Source: a virus (taxonomy: Duplodnaviria; Caudoviricetes). Taken from it: a DNA stretch of 26,709 bases. The notes beneath the pieces were generated by a model, which was given only the letters and a program-made list of their open reading frames with translations, had not been told where the DNA came from and made no database searches. Location: positions 1 through 26,709 of IMG/VR virus record IMGVR_UViG_3300044724_006057; one strand, 5' to 3'. Both the position numbers and the translations under genes were made by a program. Below are positions 5,585 to 25,665 of the stretch, piece after piece. Each line of letters opens with the position of its first letter. The first letter of the stretch is position 1.

Positions 5585-5592
5585 AATAAATA
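5585..5592 (+). promoter_or_regulatory. Possible variant T4-type late promoter (AATAAATA)
   Basis: 7/8 match to TATAAATA, about 50 nt upstream of the 5642 start. The AT-rich context makes a chance match likely. Confidence 0.35.
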
Positions 5593-5641
5593 TCTTTGTC
5601 CACTAGGATTAAATAAAAACAACAATCGCGGGAGCAAACTA

Positions 5642-6364
5642 ATGGCAGTTAATTTTCCCAGTAGTCCATCAGGCGGTGATCAGGTAACCTTTGAAGGTGT
5701 TACCTATACATATAATGCCACTAAAGGCGTTTGGCAGTCAACATCAGCTGCTGCTAATGCTTATTCGAGATTTTTTGTAGGATCTTCACAGTTAGTAGCT
5801 GGTAGTGCAAATGCTGTTTTCACAGTAGCTGCTGGATCAGGTATTTCTCTTGATGGTCATGCCAACAACGACACCTTAACTATTACTGCAACTGGCGGAG
5901 ACACGGATCAGTATCTTCAAGTTGCCAACCTTCAACCACAATTAGACAAGTACTTACAAGTAGCAAACAGCACGTCCTTTGCTACTACTAGCTCACTTGA
6001 CGCATATTTGCAAGTAGCAAACAGCACAACTTTTGCTACTACTACGCAGCTAGATGCGTACTTACAAGTTGCTAACAGTACTTCTTTCGCCACTACCTCA
6101 CAGTTAGATGCGTACTTACAAGTTGCTAACAGTGCTAGCTTAGGTTCTGGCAATACTAACTTGACTCAGTCTGACAGTCCTCCAGGAGGCCCATCTGTTG
6201 GTGACCTGTGGTTCGATACGTCTGACCCTAGATTATATGTTTACTATTCTGACGGCTCGTCTAACCAGTGGGTACAAACTAACCCATCTAGTTCTGGTGG
6301 TAGCTCGTCGAGCAGCGCATCAACCGGTACTATTATTGCCTTAAACTATTTCTTCGGAGGATAA
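5642..6364 (+). CDS. Short fibre stalk/adaptor protein: MAVNFP module, LQVAN repeats, GDLW domain, hydrophobic C-terminal peptide
   Basis: 240-aa ORF with GGGAG SD. Five YLQVAN repeats. Ends STGTIIALNYFFGG with no globular head. Confidence 0.75.
   Translation: MAVNFPSSPSGGDQVTFEGVTYTYNATKGVWQSTSAAANAYSRFFVGSSQLVAGSANAVFTVAAGSGISLDGHANNDTLTITATGGDTDQYLQVANLQPQLDKYLQVANSTSFATTSSLDAYLQVANSTTFATTTQLDAYLQVANSTSFATTSQLDAYLQVANSASLGSGNTNLTQSDSPPGGPSVGDLWFDTSDPRLYVYYSDGSSNQWVQTNPSSSGGSSSSSASTGTIIALNYFFGG
5942..6133 (+). repeat. Coding tandem repeat, 54-bp unit, about 3.5 copies (LDxYLQVANSTxFATTxx)
   Basis: Units start at 5942, 5996, 6050 and 6104. Differences are mostly synonymous. Confidence 0.9.
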
Positions 6365-6365
6365 C

Positions 6366-6719
6366 ATGGCAGGTCCAAATATTGTAAGCGTAGCAACGCT
6401 TTCAGCTCAGACGGCTGTACAGGCAGTATCTACTACCGCTACAGCCATTGTAACCAACTCAGCAGCTTCAGGCCGCGTTATTAAAGTAAATGCTTTATAT
6501 GTCAGTAACGTCGATGGAACTAACAATGCAGATGTTAACGTTGATGTGTACAGAAACAGCACAGCATATCACGTTGCAAAGACTGTAGTTGTTCCTGCAG
6601 ATGCTACTCTTGACGTAGTCTCAAAAGCTCTCTATCTTGAAGAAGGAGACGCGTTGCGTCTTACTGCAAGCGCTAACAGCGATCTGGAGGCAGTTTGTTC
6701 GTTTGAACAGCTTAGTTAA
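6366..6719 (+). CDS. Small beta-rich phage protein, putative fibre adaptor
   Basis: 117-aa ORF with GGAGG SD, starting 1 nt after the upstream stop. Motifs PNIV.V, NVDG.N.AD, VPADATL and YLEEGD resemble small proteins I recall next to glycine-rich genes in aquatic phages. Function is inferred. Confidence 0.65.
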   Translation: MAGPNIVSVATLSAQTAVQAVSTTATAIVTNSAASGRVIKVNALYVSNVDGTNNADVNVDVYRNSTAYHVAKTVVVPADATLDVVSKALYLEEGDALRLTASANSDLEAVCSFEQLS

Positions 6720-6730
6720 GGAGATAGGCT

Positions 6731-7630
6731 ATGTCTCGTAAAACACCATTTGGCCGGATGGGTAAGAAGAATACGCCTTCTACTCTGGCTTTTTCTGGAA
6801 TGTTTACGTTGGCTGAAAACGCTCTTGAGAACACAGATTCGTCCTGGCCGCTATCGCCTAATGATGTACAAGTCGACTATTTAATTATTGCTGGTGGAGC
6901 TTCTGGTGGCGGTAAGAGCGGTTATCTTGGAGGTAACGGCGGTGGCGGCGGTGCAGGAGGCTGTATTGAAGCTAATGCTGCCGTTCTTACCGTGGGCACT
7001 ACATATTCTATTACTGTAGGAGGCGGCGGCGCTGGTTCACAAGGTACTGGTACTAACGGCTCTAGCACTACTGCGTTTGGCCTAACGGCTACAGGCGGTG
7101 GTGGCGGCGGTATGTGGTATCCACACGGTGGTGGTAATGCAAAAGCTGGAGGCTCTGGAGGCGGTGGCGGGAGCGATGGTGCTTCAACAGCTGGTGGCGC
7201 TGGGACATCCGGACAAGGACATCCTGGCGGTAGTGGTGCCAAACTGTCTGGTTACAATGGTCGCGGTGGCGGCGGCGGCGGTAAAGGCGGCCCAGGCGTC
7301 GATTCCGCAGCAGGACCAGGTATCACCAGATCTATTACTGGCAGCAGCGCAGAGTATGCAGAAGGTGGTGGCGGTCATAACGGTAGTGTGGCTGGTATAG
7401 GTGGCGGTGTAGTCTCTGGAACCACAGGAGCTGTAAATACTGGCGGCGGCGGAGCTGGAGACGGTCCAAGCGGTGGCGGTACCTCATATACGTCTGGTGC
7501 TGGAGGCAGTGGTGTAGTGATTTTACGAACTACCTCTACTGCGCAAGCTACTACTGGTTCTCCCACCACTTCCACTGATGGGTCTTATAATATCTACCAG
7601 TTTACTGGTTCCGGATCCATTACTTTTTAG
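6731..7630 (+). CDS. Glycine-rich putative adhesin, paralog 1 of 5
   Basis: 299 aa, AAGGAG SD. N-terminal GKK..SGxF..WP leader, poly-Gly tracts, C-terminal GSGVVILR...TDGSYNIYQFTGSGSITF. Confidence 0.8.
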   Translation: MSRKTPFGRMGKKNTPSTLAFSGMFTLAENALENTDSSWPLSPNDVQVDYLIIAGGASGGGKSGYLGGNGGGGGAGGCIEANAAVLTVGTTYSITVGGGGAGSQGTGTNGSSTTAFGLTATGGGGGGMWYPHGGGNAKAGGSGGGGGSDGASTAGGAGTSGQGHPGGSGAKLSGYNGRGGGGGGKGGPGVDSAAGPGITRSITGSSAEYAEGGGGHNGSVAGIGGGVVSGTTGAVNTGGGGAGDGPSGGGTSYTSGAGGSGVVILRTTSTAQATTGSPTTSTDGSYNIYQFTGSGSITF

Positions 7631-7638
7631 AGGTAGAT

Positions 7639-8634
7639 ATGCGTAGAGCAAACCCTTTTGGTAAAAAAACTTCTACATCTGATACTGCTGCATCAGGGGT
7701 ATTTGATTTAAACACGGTCGCTGCAGAAAGAAACGAAGATAACTGGCCATCAGCAACCCTTCCAATGTCGATGGAGTTTTTGGTTGTTGCAGGTGGCGGT
7801 GGAGGCAGTGGCAGTCCCAATAACCGACACGGAGGTGGTGGTGGCGCCGGCGGTTTCAGAACTTCCACACATCCAGTAGCCGTAGGTCATGTGTATACAG
7901 TAACGGTTGGTTCAGGCGGTGTAGGTGGTGCTTCTGCTACGCAAGGAGTTAATGGAGCTAACTCAAGTATAGTTGGTCCCGGCAGTCTCAATTATATTTC
8001 TGCAGGCGGAGGTGCCGGCGGTGTAGCTAGAGTTGATACAGGTAACGGCAATGGTACCGGTGCTGGTAATGATGGTGGTAGCGGCGGCGGTGGCGGCGAA
8101 TCCTTCGGCGGTCCTGGTTTTGGTAACGGTAACGTCCCTTCTACAAGTCCTTCACAAGGTAACCCAGGTGGCACTACAATAGGATCGACTAACGCAAGCG
8201 GTGGCGGTGGTGCTGGCTCGATTGGAGCAAACAATACTACATTGGCACCTAGCGGATCCGCCAGCAGCGCTGGGCCAGGCGGCGCAGGCCTGTACTCGTC
8301 CATAACAGGATCCAATACTGCGTATGCAGGTGGCGGCGCCGGAGGAAACGATCAATATTATGGCGTTTCTGTAGGCGGTGTTGGCGGCGGAGGAGGTGGC
8401 TCTGGTACCAATGGCTTCTCGCGAGGAACTTCGGGCACAGTGAACACTGGCGGTGGTGCTGGTGGGTCTTGGAATGACGCGGGTGGTGGCGGCTACACGC
8501 CCAACGGCGGCTCTGGTATTGTAGTTATACGTACTAGTTCTACTGCAGCAAGTACAACTGGTTCGCCTACGATTAGTACCGATGGTTCATATAATGTCTA
8601 CAAATTCACCGCTTCCGGATCTATTACTTTTTAG
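7639..8634 (+). CDS. Glycine-rich putative adhesin, paralog 2 of 5
   Basis: 331 aa with the same leader and GSITF C-terminus. GAGG SD overlaps the upstream stop. Confidence 0.8.
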   Translation: MRRANPFGKKTSTSDTAASGVFDLNTVAAERNEDNWPSATLPMSMEFLVVAGGGGGSGSPNNRHGGGGGAGGFRTSTHPVAVGHVYTVTVGSGGVGGASATQGVNGANSSIVGPGSLNYISAGGGAGGVARVDTGNGNGTGAGNDGGSGGGGGESFGGPGFGNGNVPSTSPSQGNPGGTTIGSTNASGGGGAGSIGANNTTLAPSGSASSAGPGGAGLYSSITGSNTAYAGGGAGGNDQYYGVSVGGVGGGGGGSGTNGFSRGTSGTVNTGGGAGGSWNDAGGGGYTPNGGSGIVVIRTSSTAASTTGSPTISTDGSYNVYKFTASGSITF

Positions 8635-8765
8635 GAAATAGAATGAGACGTAATAAAGGTACATTTGGAAAGAAAGCACTGGTAGCTAACACTAGTTCTG
8701 CTAGTGGGTTGTTTTCTTTGAATGACGTTGGAGACGAACAACGCGATAGTAATTGGCCTACCATG
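8577..8765 (+). repeat. Direct repeat copy 1 (189 bp) spanning the paralog 2/3 junction
   Basis: Matches 9548..9736 at an offset of 971 with 7 mismatches by manual alignment. 8651..8761 is identical to 9622..9732 (111 bp). Confidence 0.9.
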
Positions 8766-9605
8766 GTTACTGGTGCTACATTAATGGATATTTTAACCGT
8801 GGCCGGAGGCGGCGGTGGTGGTACTGGTGACAACGGTTCAAACGGTGGTGGTGGCGGTGGGGGCGCCGGAGGATATCTACTCAACTCTGGCGTGTCCATT
8901 TCTAGTGGTATTACCTATACAGTTGCAGTAGGTAGCGGCGGATCTGGCGCAGCTTATTTTTCTAATCCTGGCGATGGAGTGGTAGGCGCAGACAGTTCAT
9001 TATCTGGCTCGGGCCTTACAACAATTACTGCTGCGGGTGGTGGATACGGGGGTGGATTTTCATATCGACCTGGCGGCGATGGTGGATCAGGTGGGGGCTC
9101 AGGTGGCCGAGATGAAGGTACTGGTCAACCAGCTGGTTCTGCATCTCCGGCCGGGCAAGGTAATCCAGGTGGTAAAGGCGGATCTAGAAACGGATTCTAT
9201 GGTGGCGGCGGCGGTGGTGGCGGCGCCGGAGCATCTGGTGGCAACAACTCTCACCATAACGGTGGCGGCGGTGGAGGCGGTTCATATTCGTCGATAACCG
9301 GAGCAAACACTGCTTATGCCGGTGGCGGAGGTGGTGGAGGCAATGGGCCTGGCACTAATGGAGGCGGCGGCGCCGGCGGCGGTGGCGCTGGTGGCAATGG
9401 ACTTGGAGGTACGGTAAATACAGGTAGCGGCGGTGGTGGCCAACGCGCAGGTAATAATCCCAATGGTGGTGGTAATGGTGGCAGTGGTGTTGTAATAATT
9501 CGAGCTAACGGACCTGCAACTGCAGTCACCGGCTCTCCAACGGAAACTACCGATGGTTCATATAATGTCTATAAATTTACTGGTTCCGGATCTATTACTT
9601 TTTAG
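8643..9605 (+). CDS. Glycine-rich putative adhesin, paralog 3 of 5
   Basis: 320 aa with the same leader and GSITF C-terminus. Confidence 0.8.
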   Translation: MRRNKGTFGKKALVANTSSASGLFSLNDVGDEQRDSNWPTMVTGATLMDILTVAGGGGGGTGDNGSNGGGGGGGAGGYLLNSGVSISSGITYTVAVGSGGSGAAYFSNPGDGVVGADSSLSGSGLTTITAAGGGYGGGFSYRPGGDGGSGGGSGGRDEGTGQPAGSASPAGQGNPGGKGGSRNGFYGGGGGGGGAGASGGNNSHHNGGGGGGGSYSSITGANTAYAGGGGGGGNGPGTNGGGGAGGGGAGGNGLGGTVNTGSGGGGQRAGNNPNGGGNGGSGVVIIRANGPATAVTGSPTETTDGSYNVYKFTGSGSITF

Positions 9606-9736
9606 GAAATAGAATGAGAATTAATAAAGGTACATTTGGAAAGAAAGCACTGGTAGCTAACACTAGTTCTGCTAGTGGGTTGTTTTCTTTGAATGACGTT
9701 GGAGACGAACAACGCGATAGTAATTGGCCTACGATG
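9548..9736 (+). repeat. Direct repeat copy 2 (189 bp) spanning the paralog 3/4 junction
   Basis: Partner of 8577..8765. Confidence 0.9.
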
Positions 9737-10486
9737 CCACCTGCTTCAGCAACGGTTGAATTACTACTTGTTGCCGGCGGAGGTGGTGGTGGCACTGGCT
9801 TAGGTTGGCAATTGGCAACCGGTGGAGGCGGTGGTGGAGCCGGTGGTATGACTTCCAATAGCTCAGTTACGCTATCCGGCTCAGTAGTATATACTGTAGC
9901 CGTAGGTGCAGGAGGTGCTACGGGTGTTAACGGCAGTAATACTTTTATATCTGGCACTGGTCTTACCACTATATCTACATTAGGAGGTGGTACACAGGGT
10001 GCAGCAGGTGGATCTGGTGGCGGTCAAAACGTAGGATTTGCTGGAGGAGCAGGAACTCCTGGCCAGGGTAACCCAGGCGGAGGCGGTGGTGGACAATACA
10101 GCCCTGCAGGGGGCGGCGGTGGAGCTGGATCTGCTGGTACAGGATCAGACAACGTAAATGGTGGTCCAGGAGGCTCCGGACTCAGTAGTAGTGTAACGGG
10201 TTCGGCCGTAACGTACGCTGGTGGCGGAGGCGGCGGTACTGGTGGTACGGGAGGTACTGGAGGCGGTGGTAATTCCGGAGCTCCTGGATCTGCAGGAACT
10301 GCCAATTTAGGTGGTGGCGGCGGTGGTGGTAATACTAATAATGGTACCGGCGCCGCTGGTGGATCAGGTGTCCTAATTCTAAGAACTTTATCTACAGCAA
10401 CTGCAACTACAGGCTCGCCTACCATCAGTACTGATGGGTCTTATAACATTTACCAGTTCACTGGTTCAGGATCAATTACTTTTTAA
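9614..10486 (+). CDS. Glycine-rich putative adhesin, paralog 4 of 5
   Basis: 290 aa. The first 41 aa match paralog 3 except at one residue, then the two diverge. Confidence 0.8.
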   Translation: MRINKGTFGKKALVANTSSASGLFSLNDVGDEQRDSNWPTMPPASATVELLLVAGGGGGGTGLGWQLATGGGGGGAGGMTSNSSVTLSGSVVYTVAVGAGGATGVNGSNTFISGTGLTTISTLGGGTQGAAGGSGGGQNVGFAGGAGTPGQGNPGGGGGGQYSPAGGGGGAGSAGTGSDNVNGGPGGSGLSSSVTGSAVTYAGGGGGGTGGTGGTGGGGNSGAPGSAGTANLGGGGGGGNTNNGTGAAGGSGVLILRTLSTATATTGSPTISTDGSYNIYQFTGSGSITF

Positions 10487-10487
10487 G
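10397..10487 (+). repeat. Direct repeat (91 bp) shared by the 3' ends of paralogs 4 and 5
   Basis: Matches 11393..11483 at an offset of 996 with 7 mismatches by manual alignment. Confidence 0.8.
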
Positions 10488-10495
10488 GAGTTACC

Positions 10496-11482
10496 GTGTC
10501 TCGTAGAAATTCAGGTACCGTTGGCAAAAAAGCAATTGCAGCTAATACTAGCTCTGCAAGTGGTATTTTTACAGTAAATGACGCCGCATACGAAAACGCT
10601 GCCGGCAATTGGCCATCGATGCCACTGTTAATGGACGTGTTAGTTATCGCGGGCGGTGGTGGTGGTGGCGGCGCTGGGTATAATTCTGCCGGTGGCGGCG
10701 GAGGCGGTGGTGCTGGTGGTATGGTTTATCAGACTGGGCTAGCTGTTTCACCAGGAGACATATTCGATTGCGTCATAGGTAGTGGCGGTACCGCAGGTAG
10801 TCAAACAAATTCCACTAGTGGAACTAACAGTCAGATGTCTGGCGGTAGCATAACTTCAATATATGGTTACGGTGGTGGCGGTGGCGGTATTGGCTATTTA
10901 AACAATCAAAGCAGTGCTGCAAGTAATGTAAAGGCTGGTGGTTCTGGTGGAGGAGCCGGCGGATATGCTGGTGCGTTCTGGCAAACTCCTGGTGGCGCCG
11001 CATCACCAGCTGGCCAAGGTAATCCGGGTGGACCATCACATACGGGCCCCATCGACGGTGGCGGCGGCGGTGGTGGTGGAGCCGGCGGCTCAGGTTCAGG
11101 CGGTACGCAAGCAGGAGCTGGAGCGAACGGCGGTATAGGTATGACGTCTTCTATTACTGGTTCTGCAGTATACTACGCCGGCGGCGGTGGCGGAGCTGAG
11201 GCAAGAGATGGTTATGGAGGTAACGGTAATGGTGGTGCAGGCGGCGGCGGTACCGGTAATGTCAACTTTATTGGAATGACTGGCGCTGTAAATACTGGTG
11301 GCGGTGGTGGTGGCCAAGTTGGCTTCCGTGGTACAACTCCTCATCCCGGTACCGGTGGTTCGGGTGTAATTATTATTCGAACAGGGGCTACTGCAACTGC
11401 AACTACAGGCTCGCCTACCGTCAGTACTGATGGGTCTTATAACATATATAAGTTCACCGGATCTGGATCAATTACTTTTTAA
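10496..11482 (+). CDS. Glycine-rich putative adhesin, paralog 5 of 5
   Basis: 328 aa, GTG start with AAGGAG SD. Same leader and GSITF C-terminus. Confidence 0.8.
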   Translation: MSRRNSGTVGKKAIAANTSSASGIFTVNDAAYENAAGNWPSMPLLMDVLVIAGGGGGGGAGYNSAGGGGGGGAGGMVYQTGLAVSPGDIFDCVIGSGGTAGSQTNSTSGTNSQMSGGSITSIYGYGGGGGGIGYLNNQSSAASNVKAGGSGGGAGGYAGAFWQTPGGAASPAGQGNPGGPSHTGPIDGGGGGGGGAGGSGSGGTQAGAGANGGIGMTSSITGSAVYYAGGGGGAEARDGYGGNGNGGAGGGGTGNVNFIGMTGAVNTGGGGGGQVGFRGTTPHPGTGGSGVIIIRTGATATATTGSPTVSTDGSYNIYKFTGSGSITF

Positions 11483-11494
11483 GAGGAAACAAAA

Positions 11495-11860
11495 ATGGCA
11501 CATTTTGCTGAACTAGGCATAGATAATATTGTCAATCGAGTTATTGTAGTTCACAACAACGAATTATTAGACGGTGACGGCGTAGAGCAAGAGCACTTGG
11601 GTGTTGCATTTTGTAACAATTTGTTTGGTGGTACGTGGATTCAAACTTCGTACAACGGAAATATTAGAGCTCGATTTGCAGGCGTAGGTTACACTTATAA
11701 TAGCTCACTAGATGCTTTTATCGCTCCTAAGCCTTACGACAGTTGGGTACTTAATAACGAAACCACTGTGTGGGAAGCTCCAGTAGCAATGCCTGATGAT
11801 GGCCAGGAATATGATTGGGACGAAGAGAATACTCAATGGGTGGTAAGACCGTCCGAATAA
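11495..11860 (+). CDS. Acidic small phage protein (MAHFA...WIQTSYN...WEAPV type), possible fibre chaperone or accessory protein
   Basis: 121 aa, GAGG SD. I recognise the motif pattern from phage proteins that follow glycine-rich genes. The chaperone role is inference from position. Confidence 0.6.
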   Translation: MAHFAELGIDNIVNRVIVVHNNELLDGDGVEQEHLGVAFCNNLFGGTWIQTSYNGNIRARFAGVGYTYNSSLDAFIAPKPYDSWVLNNETTVWEAPVAMPDDGQEYDWDEENTQWVVRPSE

Positions 11861-11863
11861 ATA
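11856..11863 (+). promoter_or_regulatory. Possible variant late promoter (AATAAATA) overlapping the upstream stop
   Basis: 7/8 match to TATAAATA, 30 nt upstream of the 11893 start. Confidence 0.4.
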
Positions 11864-11892
11864 ATTAGTAACCTTGAAATTATGGATCATGA

Positions 11893-13575
11893 ATGGCGGT
11901 CAACTTTCCAGACAATCCCTCAAGCGGCCAGACGGTAACCTTTGGTTCGACAACCTATACCTACAATTCCACAAAAGGTATATGGACGTCTGGCTCGTCT
12001 AGCTCAACAAGCACGGACAATTATTTAGAGGTAGCTAACAGTGTCGTCTTTGTAACGAAGCCCGATGCTGTTGCCTCTAATAATGCTATTAAGGTTCTTA
12101 TAGACGATCGTCTTCAAGTAGCAAACCTCCAGCCTCAGTTAGACAAGTATCTACAGGTAGCTAACGTATCAAGCTATGCCTTTTCTAGCGAAAAAGTGTT
12201 TACTGTTACTAACAGTGGTTCAGGCGCATACAAGTTCTATGGCGTTGGTACTGGTGCAGATGCATCCCAAGCCAACAGTAACCCTACTTTATATTTGTCT
12301 CGTGGTGAAAAGTATACATTTAATGTAAATGCTTCCGGTCACCCTTTCTACATTAATACTACAAACGCTACCGGTACAGGTAATGCTTTTGCTAACGGCG
12401 TAATAAACAACGGCGCTGCAGTTGGTAACGTAGTGTTCACAGTGCCAATGAACGCACCTGATACTCTGCATTACAACTGCCAATACCATTCAAGCATGAA
12501 TGGAACGATCTATGTTTTATCCCAGACGTCGACAGATACAGCCAGCTTTCAAACTAAGGCGGATGCTACTGCAGCTAACAACGCTCTATTGTCTCTAATA
12601 CAAGATAGATTACAAGTTGCAAATCTTCAACCGCAACTAGACAAATACCTACAAGTAGCAAATGGAATTTCACTCACCGCCTTCGATGTAATCACGGCTA
12701 CTCCTAGTGGCAACGGCTCTTTAATCTACACTAGTGCAAATGGATCGTTTACCTTTACACCTGCCAACGCTACTCAAGGTAGCGGCGGTGGTGCCTCAGT
12801 AACTGTATCAGATGCTGCCCCAAGTAGTCCGTCCGATGGTGATCTTTGGTTTGATTCTGAAGATCTGATCATGTACGTATACTACAATGATGGGAGTTCT
12901 AGTCAATGGGTCAAGACAAGTCCGTCTAGTTCTACCGACTTATCAGGTTACCTACAAGTAGCCAATGCCGTAAATTTGACCTCTCTTGACGTCATTACAT
13001 CTACACCAAGCGGTAATGGTTCATTAATATACAACAGCTCCAATGGCTCGTTTACATTTACACCTGCCAATGCTACCCAGGGTGGTGGAGGTGGAGGCGG
13101 TGCTTCTGTAACTTCATCCGATACAGCACCATCTAGTCCAAGCGCTGGTGATCTTTGGTTCCACACTACCCAACTAAAACTGTACGTATACTATTCAGAC
13201 GGATCGTCTAACCAATGGATTCAGACTAATAGTGGTGTAGGAAACAGGGTTGATGAGTTTATTAAAGCATATAGATATCAGGGCACACTTGCAATAAATA
13301 CAGGTGATACTAGATTATACCTACAAGATAGTTACATACTAAAGGGTATACACGCTTATGTTGACGCTGCACCGACAGGTTCTAGTGTCATTGCAGATGT
13401 AAAGAAAAACGGTAGCTCGTTACAAACGATTACAGTTGCTGCTGGAGCAACTACTGCATCTAATACTAGTTTAAGCCATACGTTTCTAAGTGGTGATTAC
13501 CTTACAGTTGATATCACCCAAGTAGGTTCATCAACTGCTGGCACAAATCTGTACATGGTTTTTACATTTAACTAA
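11893..13575 (+). CDS. Putative virion fibre: MAVNFP module, LQVAN stalk, cupredoxin-like domain, two GDLW modules, C-terminal beta domain
   Basis: 560 aa. NPTLYLSRGEKYTF..GHPFYI..LHYNCQYHSSMNGTIYV. Duplicated GNGSLIY..NGSFTFTPANATQG..APSSPS.GDLWF unit. Confidence 0.8.
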   Translation: MAVNFPDNPSSGQTVTFGSTTYTYNSTKGIWTSGSSSSTSTDNYLEVANSVVFVTKPDAVASNNAIKVLIDDRLQVANLQPQLDKYLQVANVSSYAFSSEKVFTVTNSGSGAYKFYGVGTGADASQANSNPTLYLSRGEKYTFNVNASGHPFYINTTNATGTGNAFANGVINNGAAVGNVVFTVPMNAPDTLHYNCQYHSSMNGTIYVLSQTSTDTASFQTKADATAANNALLSLIQDRLQVANLQPQLDKYLQVANGISLTAFDVITATPSGNGSLIYTSANGSFTFTPANATQGSGGGASVTVSDAAPSSPSDGDLWFDSEDLIMYVYYNDGSSSQWVKTSPSSSTDLSGYLQVANAVNLTSLDVITSTPSGNGSLIYNSSNGSFTFTPANATQGGGGGGGASVTSSDTAPSSPSAGDLWFHTTQLKLYVYYSDGSSNQWIQTNSGVGNRVDEFIKAYRYQGTLAINTGDTRLYLQDSYILKGIHAYVDAAPTGSSVIADVKKNGSSLQTITVAAGATTASNTSLSHTFLSGDYLTVDITQVGSSTAGTNLYMVFTFN

Positions 13576-13585
13576 AGGGTTTACA

Positions 13586-14854
13586 ATGTACGCACATCTA
13601 TATTTTGACTCAGGCACGGCCACCGGTGAAATCGTTAGAGATATAGTTAGGTTAATTACTAGCTCTACGTCTACTACTGCTAGTCTTGCTGGTCTAGAAT
13701 TTATTAATACTGGTAGCTCTACGGTCGTTGGTGGTAACAGTGGTTGGAGTCTAAATTCAAACTCACCAACTATTCCTTCTTCGGGCACAGCGGTTAGTAC
13801 TAGTGATGCTTATTTTATTCTAGAAGCATCGTGTACTACAGTTTCTAAAACTAAGTATTGTAGTATTCAATCTAATTGTGATTGGACTTCCTCTGACGTT
13901 ACACAGGCCACCCCAACAACTATTGGAGGCGGAGCTACTGCTTTCAATATGTCCAACGTACTAGATCCTGGCGCTGCTACTGAAATGTACAGCGCTGGAT
14001 ATGACGGTACTGGTGCTAACTATACAGATGTAAATGGTATTGTAGCAACCGCAGATTTTTCTGATAACGGTATCCACATCTTTGCCGACTCTACTCGAAT
14101 ACTAATACACGGTAAGGATGGTAATCAAAATACGGTACTTTTGGGTAACGCTGAGTTTGCAGAAACATCTACTACCACTCATCAGAGTCTTGTACCACAG
14201 TGTAATTTTCTTGTTAACGAACAAAGGATTATCAATGGATTAGACTTGGCCAGTTACAGAGGAGAGGCGGCTTCGATATGGTTGGTTGAACAGGCCTCTA
14301 CCAGTTTCTTTCAATTAAGTGAAGCCACATATTCATATAATCCAAACTTTTTAGGTAAAATACGAACTGCTGGCTGGATGGAAAAAAGTGGTAGTGTCGC
14401 TAACTATGGAGGAGCTTATCGAGGTACTGCTTACCTAGATGACGGTACAACGACTGGCAGTACTACTAGTTCAACCACTGTAGGTTATGGCACACAACAA
14501 AACCAAGGTATGATAGGAACTGCTGCTGCTTTAAGTTTGTTTGGTACAGGCTTCATGGATACTACGGTTAACGATAACACCGGTTATGATAATCTGTGGG
14601 GCAGAAGTACGGCTCTAGCATATGATTCTTCAGGTAATGTAGGCCTCGCTTTGAGAAAAGTGTTTTGGGAAGTAGATCCAAACTGGAATAATGACGTGCT
14701 GGATATAAGCGGTATCAGTAACTTTTGGAGATGCGCTGCTGCATTGGGTTCAGATGGTGATACTATCACAATAGGTTCAGACGTATATGTTTATCTTAAT
14801 ATGATACCATCAGCTCCGGAAACATTAGGTGCATTCTTAGTCAAGAGAACTTAA
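13586..14854 (+). CDS. Hypothetical protein, probably virion-associated
   Basis: 422-aa Thr/Ser/Gly-rich ORF, tightly packed and co-oriented with the fibre genes. No motif recognised. Confidence 0.6.
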   Translation: MYAHLYFDSGTATGEIVRDIVRLITSSTSTTASLAGLEFINTGSSTVVGGNSGWSLNSNSPTIPSSGTAVSTSDAYFILEASCTTVSKTKYCSIQSNCDWTSSDVTQATPTTIGGGATAFNMSNVLDPGAATEMYSAGYDGTGANYTDVNGIVATADFSDNGIHIFADSTRILIHGKDGNQNTVLLGNAEFAETSTTTHQSLVPQCNFLVNEQRIINGLDLASYRGEAASIWLVEQASTSFFQLSEATYSYNPNFLGKIRTAGWMEKSGSVANYGGAYRGTAYLDDGTTTGSTTSSTTVGYGTQQNQGMIGTAAALSLFGTGFMDTTVNDNTGYDNLWGRSTALAYDSSGNVGLALRKVFWEVDPNWNNDVLDISGISNFWRCAAALGSDGDTITIGSDVYVYLNMIPSAPETLGAFLVKRT

Positions 14855-14855
14855 C

Positions 14856-15050
14856 ATGGCCGCTTTACAAATTACAGTTAGTGGTTCAGCGCAGGACGTA
14901 ACAGCGTTACACATAGTAGAGTTTAATGCAGCTAACACCGTTGTATTTTTAGCAAATACTTTTTCAATTAATAACAAGTACGATCGTTTAATTGAAGTAG
15001 GTCCAGCTATTACAGCAACAGCTGCAGCAGATCCAGAGAGTTGGGAATAA
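14856..15050 (+). CDS. Hypothetical protein
   Basis: 64 aa with 1-nt spacing to both neighbours (TAAcATG junctions), consistent with translational coupling. Confidence 0.6.
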   Translation: MAALQITVSGSAQDVTALHIVEFNAANTVVFLANTFSINNKYDRLIEVGPAITATAAADPESWE

Positions 15051-15051
15051 C

Positions 15052-15303
15052 ATGGAACAGCTAACTATAAACAAACATTATACGGACAGTACTGGTAAAG
15101 TTCTGTATCTTGATGTAACCTTAAGTTTGACACAAGGTGGATTGACCAAATCTGCTAATAATATTTTTTCTGTGAATCTTAATGAATATAGTGAAGACGT
15201 GGCTAAGAAGATAGTAATATCAAAATATCCTCAGTACCCAATGCTTCAAACGAAAGTACATTATTTGTTTCATCTGGCTAATCTAACGGAAACAGAAGTG
15301 TAA
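15052..15303 (+). CDS. Hypothetical protein
   Basis: 83 aa; tiles the gap between neighbours exactly. Confidence 0.55.
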   Translation: MEQLTINKHYTDSTGKVLYLDVTLSLTQGGLTKSANNIFSVNLNEYSEDVAKKIVISKYPQYPMLQTKVHYLFHLANLTETEV

Positions 15304-15306
15304 TCT

Positions 15307-15915
15307 ATGGCTGTTAACTTTCCAGATAGTCCCACTAACGGACAAGAGTTTACAACTAACGGTACTACGTTTGTCTATAACTCTACAGACGGAAGATGGG
15401 ATGCGACACAGACACCTGTTTTCGATCAGTACTTGGAAGTAGCTAACAGTACTGGTTTTATTACTCAGTCTACGCTAGACGGATACTTGCAAGTATCTAA
15501 CACATCTAGTTTTACAACATTAACTTCGTTTAATGTTCTGACTAGTACCGCTAGCGGCAATGGTTCATTGTCCTACAGTAGCTCAAATGGCTCATTCACT
15601 TTTACTCCAGCGAACCTAACTGAAAATAGTCCGTCAGTTGTGTACGCACTAAGCGGTACAGATATTGATCCAACTAACGGTGGAATACAAACTAAAACAT
15701 TATCTGCAGACACTACATTTACTGAATCTTTGACTAACGGTGATAGTGTTGTGCTTATGCTTAATGCTGGAGCTTCTTACACTGTTACTTGGCCTACTAT
15801 CACTTGGGTAACGAGCAACGGTAACGCGGCACCAACTTTGACTGCCAACGATACACTTGTATTCTGGAAAGTGGGTTCTACTCTGTACGGAGCCTACGTA
15901 GGTAGCTACACGTAA
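15307..15915 (+). CDS. Short fibre stalk/adaptor: MAVNFP module, LQVAN-type repeats, C-terminal beta domain
   Basis: 202 aa. C-terminal IDPTNGGIQTKTL...TVTWPTITW...APTLT domain. Stop overlaps the next ATG (TAATG). Confidence 0.75.
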   Translation: MAVNFPDSPTNGQEFTTNGTTFVYNSTDGRWDATQTPVFDQYLEVANSTGFITQSTLDGYLQVSNTSSFTTLTSFNVLTSTASGNGSLSYSSSNGSFTFTPANLTENSPSVVYALSGTDIDPTNGGIQTKTLSADTTFTESLTNGDSVVLMLNAGASYTVTWPTITWVTSNGNAAPTLTANDTLVFWKVGSTLYGAYVGSYT

Positions 15916-17600
15916 TGGATAACTTAGCAGTATCGTTACGAGCCGCTGCCGGCAATGTAAGTACAGGTGGAGGCGCAACCAATCCTAATGCATGGGACAT
16001 TTCGTATGCAGAGTTAGATCATACTAACTCATCCAATTTTTTTGATATAGATGAAATGTTACTTGCAAGCAGTACTGGTGTAGGCACACAGGAAGCAAAC
16101 CCAAGAGGATTATTCTTTAAGCCTGATGGTACTAAAATGTACATTACCGGAAATTCTGGTGATGATGTAAACGAATACGATTTAAGTACTGCGTGGGATC
16201 CAGCTACAGCTACCTTCAATCAGGTCTTTTCCGTATCTTCACAAGAAGCCACGCCATCAGGTGTCCACTTTAAACCCGATGGTACTAAAATGTATATTAT
16301 AGGATATACTGGCGATGATATAAACGAATACGACCTTAGTACAGCTTGGGATGTTAGCACCGCTAGCTATCAGCAAAATTTTTCTGTAGCCTCACAAGAA
16401 GCTACTCCGGAAGATTTGTGGTTCAAGCCGGATGGTACTAAAATGTATATAACTGGCACAACATCCGATATTGTGAGGGAATACGATTTAAGTACTGCTT
16501 GGGATATCAGTACGGCTAGCTATTCTCAAGGTTTCAACTTAATATCACCAACTAACTACGAAGGTGGTTCTAGAGGCTTATGGTTTAACTCTGATGGTAC
16601 TGGAATGTGGGTATCTGGAACATCTGGCGATGGAGTTGATGAATTCTCATTAAGCACTGCATGGGACGTGACCACTGCTAGTCACGTTCAGTACTTAAAT
16701 TTATATAGCACTAGCATTTTTACATCTGCTGGAGCTACTGGTACTGCCGAGACCAATCCAATGGCAATCTTTTTTAAACCTGAAGGTGATAAGTTCTTTA
16801 TGGTAGGTAATGGCCAGGATAAAGTACATACTTATAAAGTTGGTGTTAAATATCTAGATGTAAGCAGTGAAGAACTAACCCCAAACTCAATATCTTTCAA
16901 ATCTAATGGTACTAAAATGTACATATTAGGTAGCAGTGGCGATGATATTAACGAGTATGATTTAAGTACTGCTTGGGATGTATCAACGGCGACTTACTCA
17001 CAAACTGGATCTGTAAAATCAGATAATAGCGTCATGACAGCTCCACAAGGAATGTTTTTTAAAGATGACGGAACTAAAGTTTATGTAACAGGTCAATCTA
17101 GTGATGTCGTAGGTGAGTACGACCTTAGTACAGCTTGGGATATAAGTACTATGAGTCACAATCAAAACTTCTCAGTAGCATCACAAGAGGCTACTCCTGC
17201 AGGCGTTTGCTTTAAAGATGATGGTACTAAGATGTATGTTACTGGATATACCAGTGATAATGTTCTAGAATATGATTTAAGTACTGCTTGGGATGTTAGT
17301 ACTGCTAGTTATTCTCAGGCGTTTAGTGTCAATTCACAAGAAGCTGCACCGAGAGGCGTGGTTTTTAAAACAGATGGCACCAAGATGTATATTGCTGGAT
17401 CTAATGGTGATGAAATTAATGAATACGACCTTAGCACTGCATGGGATGTTAGTACTGCTACGTTTAACCAAAATTTTAAAGAATCCATAGTGCAAGAAAC
17501 TGTTTTAACTGATGTATTCTTTAAACCAGATGGCACAAGGTTTTGGATAACAGGCAGAACAAATGATAACGTATACCAATACAATATACGGAGTAGTTAA
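15915..17600 (+). CDS. Beta-propeller repeat protein, putative adhesin head (10 repeats)
   Basis: 561 aa. Ten F(K/N)x(D/E/N)G(T/D)-type repeats of roughly 50 aa, eight followed by LSTAWD. Confidence 0.8.
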   Translation: MDNLAVSLRAAAGNVSTGGGATNPNAWDISYAELDHTNSSNFFDIDEMLLASSTGVGTQEANPRGLFFKPDGTKMYITGNSGDDVNEYDLSTAWDPATATFNQVFSVSSQEATPSGVHFKPDGTKMYIIGYTGDDINEYDLSTAWDVSTASYQQNFSVASQEATPEDLWFKPDGTKMYITGTTSDIVREYDLSTAWDISTASYSQGFNLISPTNYEGGSRGLWFNSDGTGMWVSGTSGDGVDEFSLSTAWDVTTASHVQYLNLYSTSIFTSAGATGTAETNPMAIFFKPEGDKFFMVGNGQDKVHTYKVGVKYLDVSSEELTPNSISFKSNGTKMYILGSSGDDINEYDLSTAWDVSTATYSQTGSVKSDNSVMTAPQGMFFKDDGTKVYVTGQSSDVVGEYDLSTAWDISTMSHNQNFSVASQEATPAGVCFKDDGTKMYVTGYTSDNVLEYDLSTAWDVSTASYSQAFSVNSQEAAPRGVVFKTDGTKMYIAGSNGDEINEYDLSTAWDVSTATFNQNFKESIVQETVLTDVFFKPDGTRFWITGRTNDNVYQYNIRSS

Positions 17601-18052
17601 TGTACGTAAAAGTAGAAAATAATGAGATAGTCCAGTACCCGTATAGCATCGAGCAATTTCGTGCGGACAATAGAAACGTGTCCTTTCCGTCAGACTTAAC
17701 TAATGATATATTAGCTAGTCATGGAGTCTATCCTGTTACCAACGATCCAGCTCCAACATACGATCCTGCTACTCAAAGAGTGGAAAAATCTACTACACCT
17801 GTGCTGAGAGATGGTAGCTGGGTGTTAACTAAATCTGTATTACAGCTTACTGCAGATCAAATTACCTCATACACTAACACTATAGCGAAAAAAGTGAGAG
17901 CTACAAGAACCCAACTATTACAAGAAACAGATTGGTGTGCATGCAGTGATGTAACAATGTCTACAGAAATGAATACATATAGACAAGCATTACGTGATGT
18001 GCCTGCTCAAGAAGGCTTTCCGCACACAATAACTTGGCCCACCAAACCATAA
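17600..18052 (+). CDS. Tail-fibre assembly chaperone-like protein
   Basis: 150 aa. C-terminal R..R..LL.ETDW...YRQALRDVP.QEGFP..I.WP.KP is the pattern of Tfa-like phage fibre chaperones. TAATG overlap with the propeller gene. Confidence 0.8.
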   Translation: MYVKVENNEIVQYPYSIEQFRADNRNVSFPSDLTNDILASHGVYPVTNDPAPTYDPATQRVEKSTTPVLRDGSWVLTKSVLQLTADQITSYTNTIAKKVRATRTQLLQETDWCACSDVTMSTEMNTYRQALRDVPAQEGFPHTITWPTKP

Positions 18053-21803: not shown

Positions 21804-22454
21804 ATGAAACTTATTACCGAGATTACAGAGACTGTAGAGTATCTTTCTGAAGCTAAAGAAAACGGTGGTAAGGATTATTTTATCCGTGGTCCGTTTATGC
21901 AGGCTAACATTAAGAATCGTAATGGACGAGTTTACCCTGCAGAGGTACTCGAAAAAGAAGTAAACCGTTACACAACCGAAAATGTTAACAAGAACAGAGC
22001 ATATGGCGAACTTGGACATCCAACTAGTCCAACAATTAATCTTGATCGTGTCAGCCATATGATCAAAGAACTTACTAGAGACGGTGATAACTTTATCGGT
22101 AAGGCTAAAATTATGACAGAGACTCCTATGGGTCGTATTGTGAAGAACTTGATGGACGAAGGTGCTAGTTTAGGTGTTTCGTCTCGTGGTATGGGATCGC
22201 TTAAGAACAAAAACGGTGCAGCTGAAGTACAGAACGATTTCTATCTTGCAACTGCAGCCGATATTGTTGCAGATCCATCAGCTCCAGATGCTTTCGTTGA
22301 AGGTATCATGGAAGGTAAAGAATGGATTTGGGATAACGGCGTTATCAGGGAAGCTACCATTAACGACTATAAACAGACTATAGCGGAAGCCCCTAAAAAA
22401 GATTTGACAGAAGCCAAACTAAAAGTTTGGTCTGACTTTCTGTCCAAGCTATAA
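21804..22454 (+). CDS. g21: Prohead core protease (T4 gp21 family)
   Basis: NRNGRVYP, GELGHP (catalytic His), GVSSRGMGS (catalytic Ser), DIVADPSAPDAFV. Confidence 0.95.
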   Translation: MKLITEITETVEYLSEAKENGGKDYFIRGPFMQANIKNRNGRVYPAEVLEKEVNRYTTENVNKNRAYGELGHPTSPTINLDRVSHMIKELTRDGDNFIGKAKIMTETPMGRIVKNLMDEGASLGVSSRGMGSLKNKNGAAEVQNDFYLATAADIVADPSAPDAFVEGIMEGKEWIWDNGVIREATINDYKQTIAEAPKKDLTEAKLKVWSDFLSKL

Positions 22455-22458
22455 TTTT

Positions 22459-22466
22459 TATAAATA
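22459..22466 (+). promoter_or_regulatory. T4-type late promoter TATAAATA
   Basis: Exact consensus between g21 and g22. Confidence 0.85.
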
Positions 22467-22494
22467 ACATTAGACCACTCAAAGGAGTTTTAAA

Positions 22495-23634
22495 ATGTCT
22501 GGACAAGATATTCAAGAAGTGGAGCTTCAGGAGACTGAGCAGCAGGTTGAAGAATCTGTTGAGACAGTAGAAGAAGAGCAACTTGACGAGTTTAAAGCGT
22601 CAATGGGCGATCCTTCAGAAGTGCCTGAGCCAACTTCAACTAAGGCAAAGCCACGTAAGGGCGACAAAAAGGTAGTTGATGATCCTCAGGATTCTCCTAC
22701 TGCTGTTAAAGTCCCTGGCACTAAGGCTGGTATCATTAACGCCATGATGTCTAAGATGAATGAGATGCCTACAAAGCAACTCAAAGCATCTTATGGCAAA
22801 ATGATGGCCGGCCTCCATAAGGAAGATGTAGAATTCGAAGATGAAACTATTGAAGAAGTTCATAGTGTCCGCGATCTTCCAAAGATTACCTCTGAAGATG
22901 TATCAGTAGCTGAAGACGTAAACGCTATGTTCGAAGGCGCTGATGATCTTAACGAAGAGTTTAAAGAGAAAGCTGCTACGATCTTTGAAGCAGCAGTTGT
23001 TGCTAAGGTAAATGAGCAGCTGGAAAAAATCTCAACTAACTTTGAAGCTGAGCTTGCAGAAGAAGTAGAAAATCTGCAAAAAGAAATGAGCGAAAATCTT
23101 GACCAGTACCTCGACTATGTTGTCGAGCAGTGGATGGAAGAGAATCGTCTTGCTGTAGAGCAGGGACTCAAAGCTGAAATGGTTGAGGACTTCTTGAAAG
23201 GCCTTAAGGGCTTGTTTGAGGAGCACTATGTAGAAATCCCAGACGAGAAGGTTGACGTAGTCGAAGAGCTCGCAGCTAAGACTGAAGAATTGGAGTCTAG
23301 GCTAAACGAGCAAATCGAGAAGAATGTTGAACTTCACGGTGTTGTTGAGCAATATAAGAGGGATCAGCTGATTGAGTCAGTAAGCGCAAGCCTAACTGAT
23401 ACTCAAAAGGCTAAATTTGAGACCTTAGCTGAAGGAATTGATTTTAGTGATGAAGAGACCTTCGTTAATAAACTTAGTGTTATTAAGGAAAGTTATTTTG
23501 GCAAAGGTGAGGATAAGACTTCATCATATGAGTTGGACGACGATGAGCCATTAACAGAAGAGACTGCTGAAAAGCCAGTTCCTGCTGAGATGGCAAATTA
23601 CGTAAATGCCATTTCTAGGTCCATAAAGAAGTAA
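22495..23634 (+). CDS. g22: Prohead core scaffolding protein (T4 gp22 family)
   Basis: Acidic coiled-coil protein with EEFKEKAATIFEAAV, YLDYVVEQWMEEN and LFEEHYVEIP. Lies between g21 and g23. Confidence 0.93.
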   Translation: MSGQDIQEVELQETEQQVEESVETVEEEQLDEFKASMGDPSEVPEPTSTKAKPRKGDKKVVDDPQDSPTAVKVPGTKAGIINAMMSKMNEMPTKQLKASYGKMMAGLHKEDVEFEDETIEEVHSVRDLPKITSEDVSVAEDVNAMFEGADDLNEEFKEKAATIFEAAVVAKVNEQLEKISTNFEAELAEEVENLQKEMSENLDQYLDYVVEQWMEENRLAVEQGLKAEMVEDFLKGLKGLFEEHYVEIPDEKVDVVEELAAKTEELESRLNEQIEKNVELHGVVEQYKRDQLIESVSASLTDTQKAKFETLAEGIDFSDEETFVNKLSVIKESYFGKGEDKTSSYELDDDEPLTEETAEKPVPAEMANYVNAISRSIKK

Positions 23635-23637
23635 TAT

Positions 23638-23645
23638 TATAAATA
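23638..23645 (+). promoter_or_regulatory. T4-type late promoter TATAAATA
   Basis: Exact consensus upstream of g23, followed by a GAGGAG SD. Confidence 0.88.
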
Positions 23646-23672
23646 ACTTTAGATAGATTAGAGGAGACTATC

Positions 23673-25055
23673 ATGTTATCTGAACAACTTATCGAGAAGT
23701 GGCAGCCAGTGCTCGATCACGGCGATCTCGGCGAGATCAAAGATTCTCATCGTCGTGCTGTAACTGCTCAACTTCTGGAAAACCAAGAACGCTCTGCTCG
23801 TGAGCAAGCTATGGGTTCAGGCGGATACCAAATGCCATCGCTGTTGGGTGAGGCTTCGCCTACCAACGCAATGGGTGGTTCTTCTGCTCCTAGCGTTTCA
23901 CCATCGGGCAACATCGATCTGTTTGATCCAGTATTAATTTCACTGGTACGACGATCAATGCCAAACCTGATTGCATACGACGTGTGTGGCGTACAGCCAA
24001 TGACTGGTCCAACAGGACTAATCTTTGCTATGCGTGCACGTTACGCTAATCAGACTGGTACAGAAGCTCTTTTCAACGAAGCTGATACTTCAGTATCTGG
24101 TTCTGCTTCTGGTAACACAGCTTCACTTGGCGTAATCGATTCTACTACTGACAACCGTCAGGCTGGTAGCGACCCAACGACTCGTGCTCTTGCTAACAAC
24201 TATTCAGTACAAACTGGTATGTCTACCACGGCTGCTGAAGCTTTGGGTGACGGCGATGCTAACGCTTTCCAAGAGATGGCGTTCTCAATCGAGAAAGTTG
24301 CTGTAACGGCTGTTTCACGTGCTCTGAAAGCTGAGTACACTATGGAACTGGCTCAGGACCTGAAAGCTATCCACGGCCTCGACGCTGAGACTGAGCTTTC
24401 TAACATCCTGTCAGCTGAGATCCTGGCTGAAATTAACCGTGAAGTTGTTCGAACGATCAACTACACTGCTTCAGCTGGTGCTCAGGAGAACGTTGCTTCG
24501 CAAGGTACTTTTAACCTCGACGTTGACTCTAACGGTCGTTGGTCAGTAGAGCGCTTCAAAGGTCTGATTTTCCAGATCGAGCGTGACGCTAACCAAATCG
24601 CTAAAGCAACTCGTCGCGGTAAGGGTAACATCATGATCTGCTCTTCTGACGTAGCTTCTGCTCTTCAGATGGCTGGCGTTCTTGATTACACCCCAGCTCT
24701 GTCAGTCAACCTGAATGTAGATGACACTGGTAACACCTTTGCTGGTGTACTGAACGGTCGGATTCGAGTCTACATCGATCCATACTTCAGCTCTTCAGCT
24801 GGTAACCAGTACTACACTCTTGGCTACAAGGGCTCTAGCGCCTTTGATGCTGGTATCTTCTACTGCCCATATGTACCTCTACAGATGGTACGTGCGGTTG
24901 GTGAGGACACCTTCCAGCCTAAGATTGGCTTCAAGACTCGTTACGGCATGGTTGCTAACCCATTTGCACAAGGCGCTACAGCCGGCAATGGTACAATCAG
25001 CTTCAACAACAAGAACGTATACTACCGACTTGTTGCAGTAGCGAACCTGATGTAA
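23673..25055 (+). CDS. g23: Major capsid protein (T4 gp23 family)
   Basis: EKWQPVL, LLENQE, DPVLISLVRR, GVQPMTGPTGLIFA, SRALKAEYTMELAQDLKAIHGLDAE, YCPYVPL, FQPKIGFKTRYG. Likely gp21 cleavage at LGE60/A61. Confidence 0.98.
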   Translation: MLSEQLIEKWQPVLDHGDLGEIKDSHRRAVTAQLLENQERSAREQAMGSGGYQMPSLLGEASPTNAMGGSSAPSVSPSGNIDLFDPVLISLVRRSMPNLIAYDVCGVQPMTGPTGLIFAMRARYANQTGTEALFNEADTSVSGSASGNTASLGVIDSTTDNRQAGSDPTTRALANNYSVQTGMSTTAAEALGDGDANAFQEMAFSIEKVAVTAVSRALKAEYTMELAQDLKAIHGLDAETELSNILSAEILAEINREVVRTINYTASAGAQENVASQGTFNLDVDSNGRWSVERFKGLIFQIERDANQIAKATRRGKGNIMICSSDVASALQMAGVLDYTPALSVNLNVDDTGNTFAGVLNGRIRVYIDPYFSSSAGNQYYTLGYKGSSAFDAGIFYCPYVPLQMVRAVGEDTFQPKIGFKTRYGMVANPFAQGATAGNGTISFNNKNVYYRLVAVANLM

Positions 25056-25082
25056 TAAAAAGACCCGTAAGGGCGATTTTGG

Positions 25083-25109
25083 ACGGGAGCTTCGGCTCCC
25101 GTTTTTTTT
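25083..25109 (+). terminator. Rho-independent terminator with C(UUCG)G tetraloop
   Basis: ACGGGAGC-TTCG-GCTCCCGT followed by a T run, directly after g23. Confidence 0.92.
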
Positions 25110-25114
25110 GTCTG

Positions 25115-25122
25115 GATAAATA
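25115..25122 (+). promoter_or_regulatory. Probable variant late promoter (GATAAATA) for g3
   Basis: 7/8 match to TATAAATA, just after the terminator and before the AGGAGG SD of g3. Confidence 0.6.
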
Positions 25123-25137
25123 GATCAGGAGGAATAT

Positions 25138-25665
25138 ATGGCTACTACACAACCTAAAACTAAGAGCTACCTATCACCGCTTGGGTTTAGGTTTCTTCTT
25201 AACAGAACTCCTAATACTAACTATTTCGTACAAAACGTACGTCTTCCTACTCTTTCACTAGGACAGTTTGATATTGAAGATCCGTTTGTTAAGTTGCCAA
25301 TGCCAGGCACAAAACTTACCTTTGAGCCTCTTGACATTACGTTCCTAGTAGATGAAGATATGACTAACTATTTGGAGATCTTTAGTTGGTTAGAAGGCTT
25401 AGGCTTTCCAGAATCATTTGATCAATACCGTAATTTGGTAAGGAGCAATCAAACTTCTCCATCTCAAAAAAATGCTTCGGTGTTTAGTGACGGGGACCTT
25501 ATCATTCTTTCTAGCCATCAAAATGCCAACATCAAAGTAAAATACAAAGATATGTTCCCAATATCGTTGTCTGATCTTGCATTTGATAGTACACTGACCG
25601 ATGTAGAGTACCTGCGTGCTACAGTAACCTTTAGGTATAGATCGTATACAATTGAAAAATTTTAA
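25138..25665 (+). CDS. g3: Tail tube terminator / tail completion protein (T4 gp3 family)
   Basis: LSPLGFRF..R.P...YF.Q.V.LP, L.ITFLVDEDM.NY.EI..WL, D.FP.SLS.L.F, ATVTFRY. Lies between g23 and uvsY. Confidence 0.85.
   Translation: MATTQPKTKSYLSPLGFRFLLNRTPNTNYFVQNVRLPTLSLGQFDIEDPFVKLPMPGTKLTFEPLDITFLVDEDMTNYLEIFSWLEGLGFPESFDQYRNLVRSNQTSPSQKNASVFSDGDLIILSSHQNANIKVKYKDMFPISLSDLAFDSTLTDVEYLRATVTFRYRSYTIEKF

Follow-up and report, generated by a model that had tools for sequence, protein, structure and literature searches.

Attachment of a separate binding protein to the tip of a phage fibre is a principle already known from the gp37–gp38 pair of T-even phages, the adapters of K1-5 and G7C, and phage Pam3. 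T-even phages carry one gp38 gene per phage, and in systems of the K1-5/G7C type each binder forms its own homotrimer. Receptor-binding proteins in general are described as homotrimers (PMC12143355). In Salmonella phage S16 (PDB 6F45), gp38 is reported to be a monomer that caps the trimeric gp37 through three tryptophans (PMC6851490). In Pam3, the glycine-rich fibre gp24 is reported to form a homotrimer via its N-terminal helices, and gp25 to bind the glycine-rich trimer 3:3 and to be absent from virions (PMC9608196). Here we analyzed a fibre cassette at positions 5642–11860 of the window, by which we mean the whole 26.7-kb stretch of IMG/VR record IMGVR_UViG_3300044724_006057, about 17% complete and from a T4-like phage. 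Eight open reading frames (ORFs), all on the + strand, were confirmed at their coordinates. Together with the 1-nucleotide (nt) gap between the first two genes and the leader common to the paralogs, they bear out the layout claimed by an earlier, sequence-only reading: a stalk, an adaptor, five paralogous heads and a closing gene of 121 amino acids (aa). We propose, with a probability of about 0.6, that these genes encode a modular fibre tip in which a peptide at the stalk end holds an adaptor trimer through the adaptor's N-terminal arm, three heads dock on it by their leaders, and the 121-aa protein helps folding. The joint system is real, widespread and uncharacterised; no published description of peptide–adaptor–leader joints was found by a search outside which supplements and closed papers lay. 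As far as sequence comparison goes, what appears to be new is the co-variation of the arm, the upper limit of three leader genes and the one-of-each pattern of leader subtypes.

A peptide, an adaptor and a leader in fixed order

The stalk gene (5642–6364, + strand; 240 aa) encodes an N-terminal F-P module, four 18-aa repeats (54-nt spacing), a small fibre module (residues 163–218, matching the PHROG tail-fibre families 9729 and 3304), a Ser/Gly linker and a hydrophobic terminal peptide; no Pfam domain was found in it. The peptide (6320–6361, + strand) is a divergent variant of its family's motif, KAIAMAIVFG. A DNA-pattern search for the motif gave 120 of about 1800 stretches. The peptide was C-terminal in all 119 unique matches, and the adaptor was the next gene in 70 of the 74 with 400 nt of room. 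Searching from the adaptor gave the same order: the best 80 of 297 viral loci contained 56 unique adaptors, 53 with the peptide motif directly upstream, two more with a near variant and the remaining one with an endonuclease VII gene inserted between. The proteins encoded upstream of the adaptor are between 67 and 1931 aa long, and clustering gave 28 groups at 60% coverage, or 5 when any local match counted. Across these loci, an unnamed C-terminal peptide ends unrelated stalks; the cassette is a conserved grammar whose gene order is shared by hundreds of aquatic phages. Three loci (L071, L359 and L362) carry a gene inserted between stalk peptide and adaptor; it is endonuclease VII in L071, and in L359 and L362 the peptide was found 400–800 nt upstream of the adaptor.

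The adaptor (6366–6719, + strand; 117 aa) belongs to a family of at least 4705 homologue clusters. No Pfam family and, in a profile search, no credible PDB sequence match were found for it. The AlphaFold2 model is a single jelly roll with a predicted local distance difference test (pLDDT) score of 88.6 and a low-confidence N-terminal arm (residues 1–10 at 54), as would be expected of a segment that becomes ordered upon binding. Its best fold matches were tied at Z 9–10 and comprised pentameric nucleoplasmins, a trimeric phage cement protein (Z 9.5, root-mean-square deviation (rmsd) 3.1, 105 residues aligned), spore appendage subunits and a viral turret; since these top matches are different oligomers, the fold does not fix the oligomer of the adaptor. 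The arm changes together with the peptide. Of 184 adaptors with a recognisable peptide, 17 follow a deviant and 167 a canonical one, and position 7, 9 or 12 is changed in 14 of the 17 but in only 1 of the 167, whereas 24 other conserved adaptor positions change alike in the two groups (6.6% versus 6.4%). Arm substitutions also vary between groups with different peptides. These comparisons indicate that the peptide co-varies with the N-terminal arm.

The leaders of the five heads (37–40 aa, no Cys) share the invariants G-K-K, S-G-x-F, E and W-P, together with about three conserved hydrophobic anchors, and their first part is basic in the window (+4 to +5). A profile seeded with these five leaders matched 184 places among 23,164 reading frames; the matches exceed chance, because every one was on the coding strand, the opposite strand giving none. 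An adaptor was present at most 4 kb upstream of all 150 unique leaders in three locus sets, among them all 27 leaders at loci selected by way of the 121-aa gene. The leader alignment is too variable for a locus scan, so DNA patterns were used, and two later scans of this kind gave 125 loci. Among pattern-picked leaders, 84 of 86 had an adaptor at most 4.5 kb upstream, both misses being cut contigs, while 0 of 38 chance pattern matches had one; a leader-like start overlooked by the profile had an adaptor upstream as well. The bodies behind the leader differ. Among 176 complete matches, 143 carry glycine-rich bodies and 21 carry other domains of at least 100 aa, ten of which are LamG domains, and 12 listed genes have the second half of the leader at their C-terminus and the first half at their N-terminus. 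Because it is carried by glycine-rich and other bodies and its halves occur at opposite ends, the leader is a portable, splittable module.

In four loci (L170, L189, L218 and L239) the leader halves lie on separate neighbouring genes, the first half on the first head and the second on the next, and one locus (L551) has up to three leader matches without an adaptor match. An ESM Atlas search returned unnamed viral clusters only, and a PDB sequence search with the leader profile gave nothing credible. When the peptide and the leader subtypes of the window itself were used for scanning, the 55 and 6 matches, mostly due to chance, included no new multi-head relative.

The window's adaptor has a net charge of −5, and D50, D79 and D106 are conserved, on loops that strand alternation in the model would place facing away from the arm; these residues are not leader-specific, because they are kept in adaptors that precede heads without a full leader. 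Among adaptor positions that might track leader type, only P77, A78 and A80 differed, in one clade of 12, which was too weak, and these candidates were rejected. Adaptor forms of 225 aa, about twice the usual length and with more than one profile match, occur in L087, L161, L165 and L225. The only three matches in the bacterial and archaeal genome collection (L365, L366 and L367) are metagenome-assembled contigs with an adaptor followed by leader-type heads, and are likely phage DNA.

Leader gene number and leader subtypes

Completed cassettes outside the window hold one, two, three and four or more leader genes in 39, 11, 8 and 0 cases, and those with 5.5 kb of room in 21, 3, 8 and 0 cases; 5 and 3 cassettes, respectively, scored zero leaders, and de-duplication masked some identical adaptors. 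In the 125 pattern-scan loci there were likewise at most three leader genes in any. The leaders of 14 trios form three subtypes, A, B and C, occurring one of each in 10 of the 14, and only 6 of the 42 trio leaders are most similar to a leader of their own cassette. With the rule unchanged, exactly A+B+C was found in 17 of 24 held-out complete cassettes, in the orders ABC, BAC, CBA and ACB, with non-glycine passengers on 7 of the 51 one-of-each heads. The helix charges of subtypes A, B and C are −1.1, −1.5 and +3.7. The order has been shuffled and passengers swapped while one-of-each was kept, as expected from three leaders working together. The subtype pattern was seen in a single lineage; the trios are related, and therefore descent contributes and an old triplication can explain part of the pattern. 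Overall, gene counts read from sequence lean to three heads rather than one monomer per trimeric fibre. Among the metagenome-assembled contigs above, L366 has the subtypes A, C and B.

We propose the following arrangement. The stalk would attach to the phage by its N-terminal module, and three stalk C-terminal peptides would contact and hold three adaptors by their N-terminal arms, in a predicted trimer. Three leaders would then dock heads on the far face of the adaptor, the heads, displayed on the virion, would bind receptors of the host, and the 121-aa protein would help the glycine-rich heads to fold. For the five heads of the window this would mean mixed tips, each filling its three slots with a different choice of heads, or else five homotrimers; a tip with a single head is the lesser rival. 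A bolder form of this arrangement, which we put forward tentatively and at somewhat less than even odds, is that the fibre tips of aquatic phages are heterotrimeric: a three-letter leader code would place three different receptor-binding domains, whether glycine-rich, LamG or other, on each adaptor trimer, and the single operon of the window could yield up to 35 tip compositions with no DNA rearrangement.

Several observations weigh against the proposed arrangement. One-of-each is not strict, as 7 of the 24 held-out cassettes deviate; the adaptors of the first trios are 74–99% identical, and the 17 held-out adaptors form 15 clusters at 95% but 9 at 90%. The arm positions and leader subtypes were selected after inspecting the data, and the adaptor tree (maximum likelihood, quick mode) requires no more than a single origin of the deviant-peptide label. 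Many adaptors precede heads without a full leader, no position in the adaptor followed the leader cleanly, and the tied top fold matches of the adaptor include pentamers (nucleoplasmin, Z 9.8). The window itself, with five leader genes, exceeds the ceiling of three. None of its leaders belongs to subtype A, B or C, all five having acidic helices (−2 to −3); heads 3 and 4 share one leader, leaving four leader types with cores 40–50% identical; and its nearest relatives with complete cassettes (L001, L002, L284 and L290) are single-headed. In addition, the structural match of the 121-aa protein to Pam3 gp25, described below, lies below the Z reached by unrelated models, with a Foldseek E of 1.4 and a profile probability of 0.1%.

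The tip could instead be built in the manner of gp38, a single leader capping the adaptor oligomer so that the five heads would be alternatives, one per fibre, which is close to the sequence-only reading's claim that the fibre accepts any one of five tips. The monomeric gp38 of S16 that caps a trimer through three tryptophans (PMC6851490) offers a precedent to which the leader's roughly three hydrophobic anchors could correspond; single-head cassettes are the commonest (39/58), and five genes would need no special account. We consider this unlikely, because it leaves unexplained both the three-gene ceiling elsewhere and the one-of-each pattern kept in four orders with changing passengers, which three leaders acting together fit better, and no Gp38_N match was found in the window. 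Equally doubtful is that heads are homotrimers, one per adaptor, with A, B and C an inherited triplication kept for another reason, such as separate sockets elsewhere on the virion. The Pam3 gp24 homotrimer held by N-terminal helices (PMC9608196), the relatedness of the trios, the lack of complementary charge among the window's five leaders and the fact that single-head cassettes must use one leader type all suit homotrimers; nevertheless, one-of-each was kept through four gene orders with passengers swapped on each subtype, a B-type leader stood alone in 0 of 16 new complete cassettes, and the strongly basic C helices (+3.7) suit pairing with acidic A and B. A further possibility, that the 117-aa protein acts as a chaperone in assembly or decorates the capsid or collar, with genes that co-travel as an operon but form no chain on the virion, is very improbable: its fold is indeed common to capsid cement, turret and spore-appendage proteins, but the peptide is terminal in every case and varies together with the arm, and the leader occurs only behind the adaptor.

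If the arrangement of peptide, adaptor trimer and three docked heads is right, three unnamed parts and one unannotated family would gain a function, and part of the arrays of 'hypothetical proteins' in the host-recognition regions of marine phages would be explained. Combining different binders in a single trimer would offer a new route to avidity or breadth in dilute water, and one virion could carry mixed host-binding tips. These parts and the family are found in genomes of podophage size as well as in T4-like ones, among them the cultured Pelagibacter phage HTVC033P and phage DSL-LC04, and the existing isolates and the small size of the proteins make the claim testable.

The cassette of the window and its neighbours

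Head 1 (6731–7630, 299 aa) has its leader at residues 1–40 and head 2 (7639–8634, 331 aa) at residues 1–37, with PF21722 after it in both; head 3 (8643–9605, 320 aa) has the same leader core as head 4 (9614–10486, 290 aa), and head 5 (10496–11482, 328 aa) begins with GTG. All five lie on the + strand and match Pfam PF21722 (Gly_rich_2) above cut-off. They contain 29–36% Gly with 11–14 Gly runs each, and are 47–52% identical to head 1 in the alignment and 42–57% identical pairwise by BLAST. The F-P module at the start of six other genes in the fibre region is absent from the starts of all five, and alignment and comparison of the starts bore out the earlier description of five paralogs with a common leader and without the MAVNFP module. 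PDB sequence searches with the head profile and with head 5 alone gave nothing credible, and a tblastn search of phage records with head 5, run under the low-complexity filter, gave no match.

The leader shared by heads 3 and 4 lies within a direct repeat of 149 nt (8613–8761 and 9584–9732, + strand, two mismatches) that flanks head 3 and spans the gene junction and the leader. Since head 3 stands between two near-identical copies, its loss by recombination between them is possible. The best-matching sequencing sources for the window are estuary metagenome runs. Contig pieces with 0–3 differences tile the head array in runs X1, X3 and X4, which are possible sources, and among the pieces listed for run X5, parts of four of the five heads were covered; the two repeat copies are collapsed into one contig in X1 and X3. 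The head 3 contig (8732–9613) has a lower depth than its neighbours (11.5 versus 26–32 in X4; 11 versus 16–19 in X5), but a dip over head 2 as well occurs in X1 and X3, and contig depth is no basis for ranking genes, so the difference is a hint only. Joints seen in the sequencing runs were rejected as cross-matches, their sides being only 18–26 letters, in Gly codons. In L283, a close relative whose adaptor is 97% identical to that of the window, DNA likeness to the window is lost at the adaptor end, and the first head is only 41–50% identical to any of the window's five. Behind a stable joint, the head array turns over rapidly.

ATAAATA, which resembles the T4 late promoter consensus, was found by motif scan before the stalk gene (5586–5592, + strand) and again at 11857–11863 (+ strand), where it opens the next fibre gene and bounds the cassette. 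With one such site ahead of the stalk gene and another where the 121-aa gene ends, the cassette probably forms a single late unit. The window has seven matches, all on the + strand and six at gene junctions, a count not by itself above chance (mean 6.2). Scans for sigma-70 promoters and terminators reached chance level only, and no RNA dataset was among the sequencing runs listed as containing the window. No inverted repeats of at least 25 nt were found within 5600–11900, and no invertase or reverse transcriptase was found by Pfam scan among the 27 window proteins of this record, itself about 17% complete.

The 121-aa gene (11495–11860, + strand; phrog_7759, of unknown function) belongs to a family of at least 7992 homologue clusters and encodes a partner of glycine-rich heads, likely a Tfa-type chaperone or a cap. 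The best 80 of 600 loci gave 58 unique ones with room, and a glycine-rich gene lay at most three genes upstream in 54 of them, directly upstream in 43; these glycine-rich genes have many other N-termini, and an adaptor lay within the same distance in only 22. Accordingly, the co-occurrence of four families that was put forward as a check on the sequence-only reading stood for peptide, adaptor and leader, which keep together far beyond chance and in fixed order, but not for the 121-aa gene, which follows glycine-rich heads (54/58) rather than the adaptor (22/58). Beyond residue 44, its model (pLDDT 92) contains no helix of at least four residues, and the second half has only short strands. Among 48,161 chains, the best match was Pam3 gp25 (7ypx_a; Z 5.4, rmsd 2.1, 53 aligned), the next reaching 3.1, and the Mu chaperone gave Z 2.6. 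The protein has no Pfam match and no C-terminal helical trimerising domain of the PF16778 type, which is carried by a 150-aa gene at 17600; a PDB sequence search gave nothing credible.

Eight loci (L103, L114, L120, L121, L125, L128, L112 and L144) show recurring pairs of stalk end and head start before glycine-rich heads without the 117-aa adaptor, as further plug-and-socket types. The first 20 kb of the window consist of fibre-type genes, six with the F-P module at the start, and the Pfam scan placed prohead protease, scaffold, gp23 and UvsY at 21804–26109. A second stalk–head–chaperone set at 15307–18052 consists of a 202-aa F-P stalk ending in a beta-rich domain, a 561-aa beta-propeller protein whose short start looks helical, and the 150-aa PF16778 tail assembly chaperone. 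At 11893–15303, a 560-aa F-P fibre ending in a domain that matches phrog_27064 is followed by genes of 422, 64 and 83 aa without a Pfam or PHROG match, and this is possibly a third socket set.

Comparison with known systems

The anchor ExsF/BxpB of Bacillus spore fibres (PDB 9H3D), as far as it is described, is likewise a small jelly roll that binds a fibre's terminal peptide (Foldseek E 2e-3, template-modelling (TM) score 0.40); it belongs to a bacterial spore surface, takes an N-terminal peptide and shares 10% identity, and is an analogy only. The T-even gp37–gp38 pair, as reported (PMC6851490), also places a separate glycine-rich protein at the fibre end via a short N-terminal part with conserved tryptophans, and the glycine-rich motifs separated by variable segments that mark gp38 are present in the heads. 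In contrast, one gp38 monomer is described as sitting on gp37 directly, by three helices, whereas here an adaptor gene stands in between and LamG domains, too, are found behind the leader. The family likeness to gp38 suggested by the sequence-only reading did not hold: neither the GP38 domain PF05268 nor PF21721 matched in the window at E 1, and PF05268 was also absent from the Pfam scan.

The heads resemble the trimeric Pam3 gp24 more than gp38, and gp24 with gp25 is the nearer solved analogue (PDB 7YPX; PMC9608196, PMC9942802). As described there, gp24 has a glycine-rich distal domain, and the N-terminal helical part that keeps its trimer together also serves for docking. A TNF-like plus glycine-rich domain marks a fibre of the gp24 type. 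In our scan gp24 matched PF21722, the Pfam family of the heads, at E 5e-5, just under cut-off; comparison of heads and gp24 profiles gave a probability of 6.5%, with no PDB sequence hit. A small gene, for a chaperone in Pam3 and for a likely one here, lies directly behind the fibre, and the 121-aa protein finds its best, though weak, fold match in the N-terminal domain of gp25. Differences are also evident. In these accounts Pam3 has a single homotrimeric fibre, disulfide-fixed to the baseplate wedge, and no stalk peptide, separate adaptor or paralog array is described in them. Its fibre docks on the wedge by a long, Cys-bearing N-terminal helical bundle, where the leaders of the window are short and Cys-free, and gp25 has a C-terminal helical trimerising domain, where the second half of the 121-aa model shows short strands only.

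The adapter or anchor-branch systems of K1-5, G7C and Klebsiella phages, as reported (PMC6872550), are alike in joining different binders by short conserved N-terminal peptides and in displaying several together, and a conserved short N-terminal leader was indeed found here on glycine-rich, LamG and unnamed domains. Their docking site is described as a T4gp10-like domain, whereas here it would be a free 117-aa jelly roll with a stalk C-terminal peptide. Finally, the present data point, in place of separate binders each on its own, to different heads within one trimeric tip.

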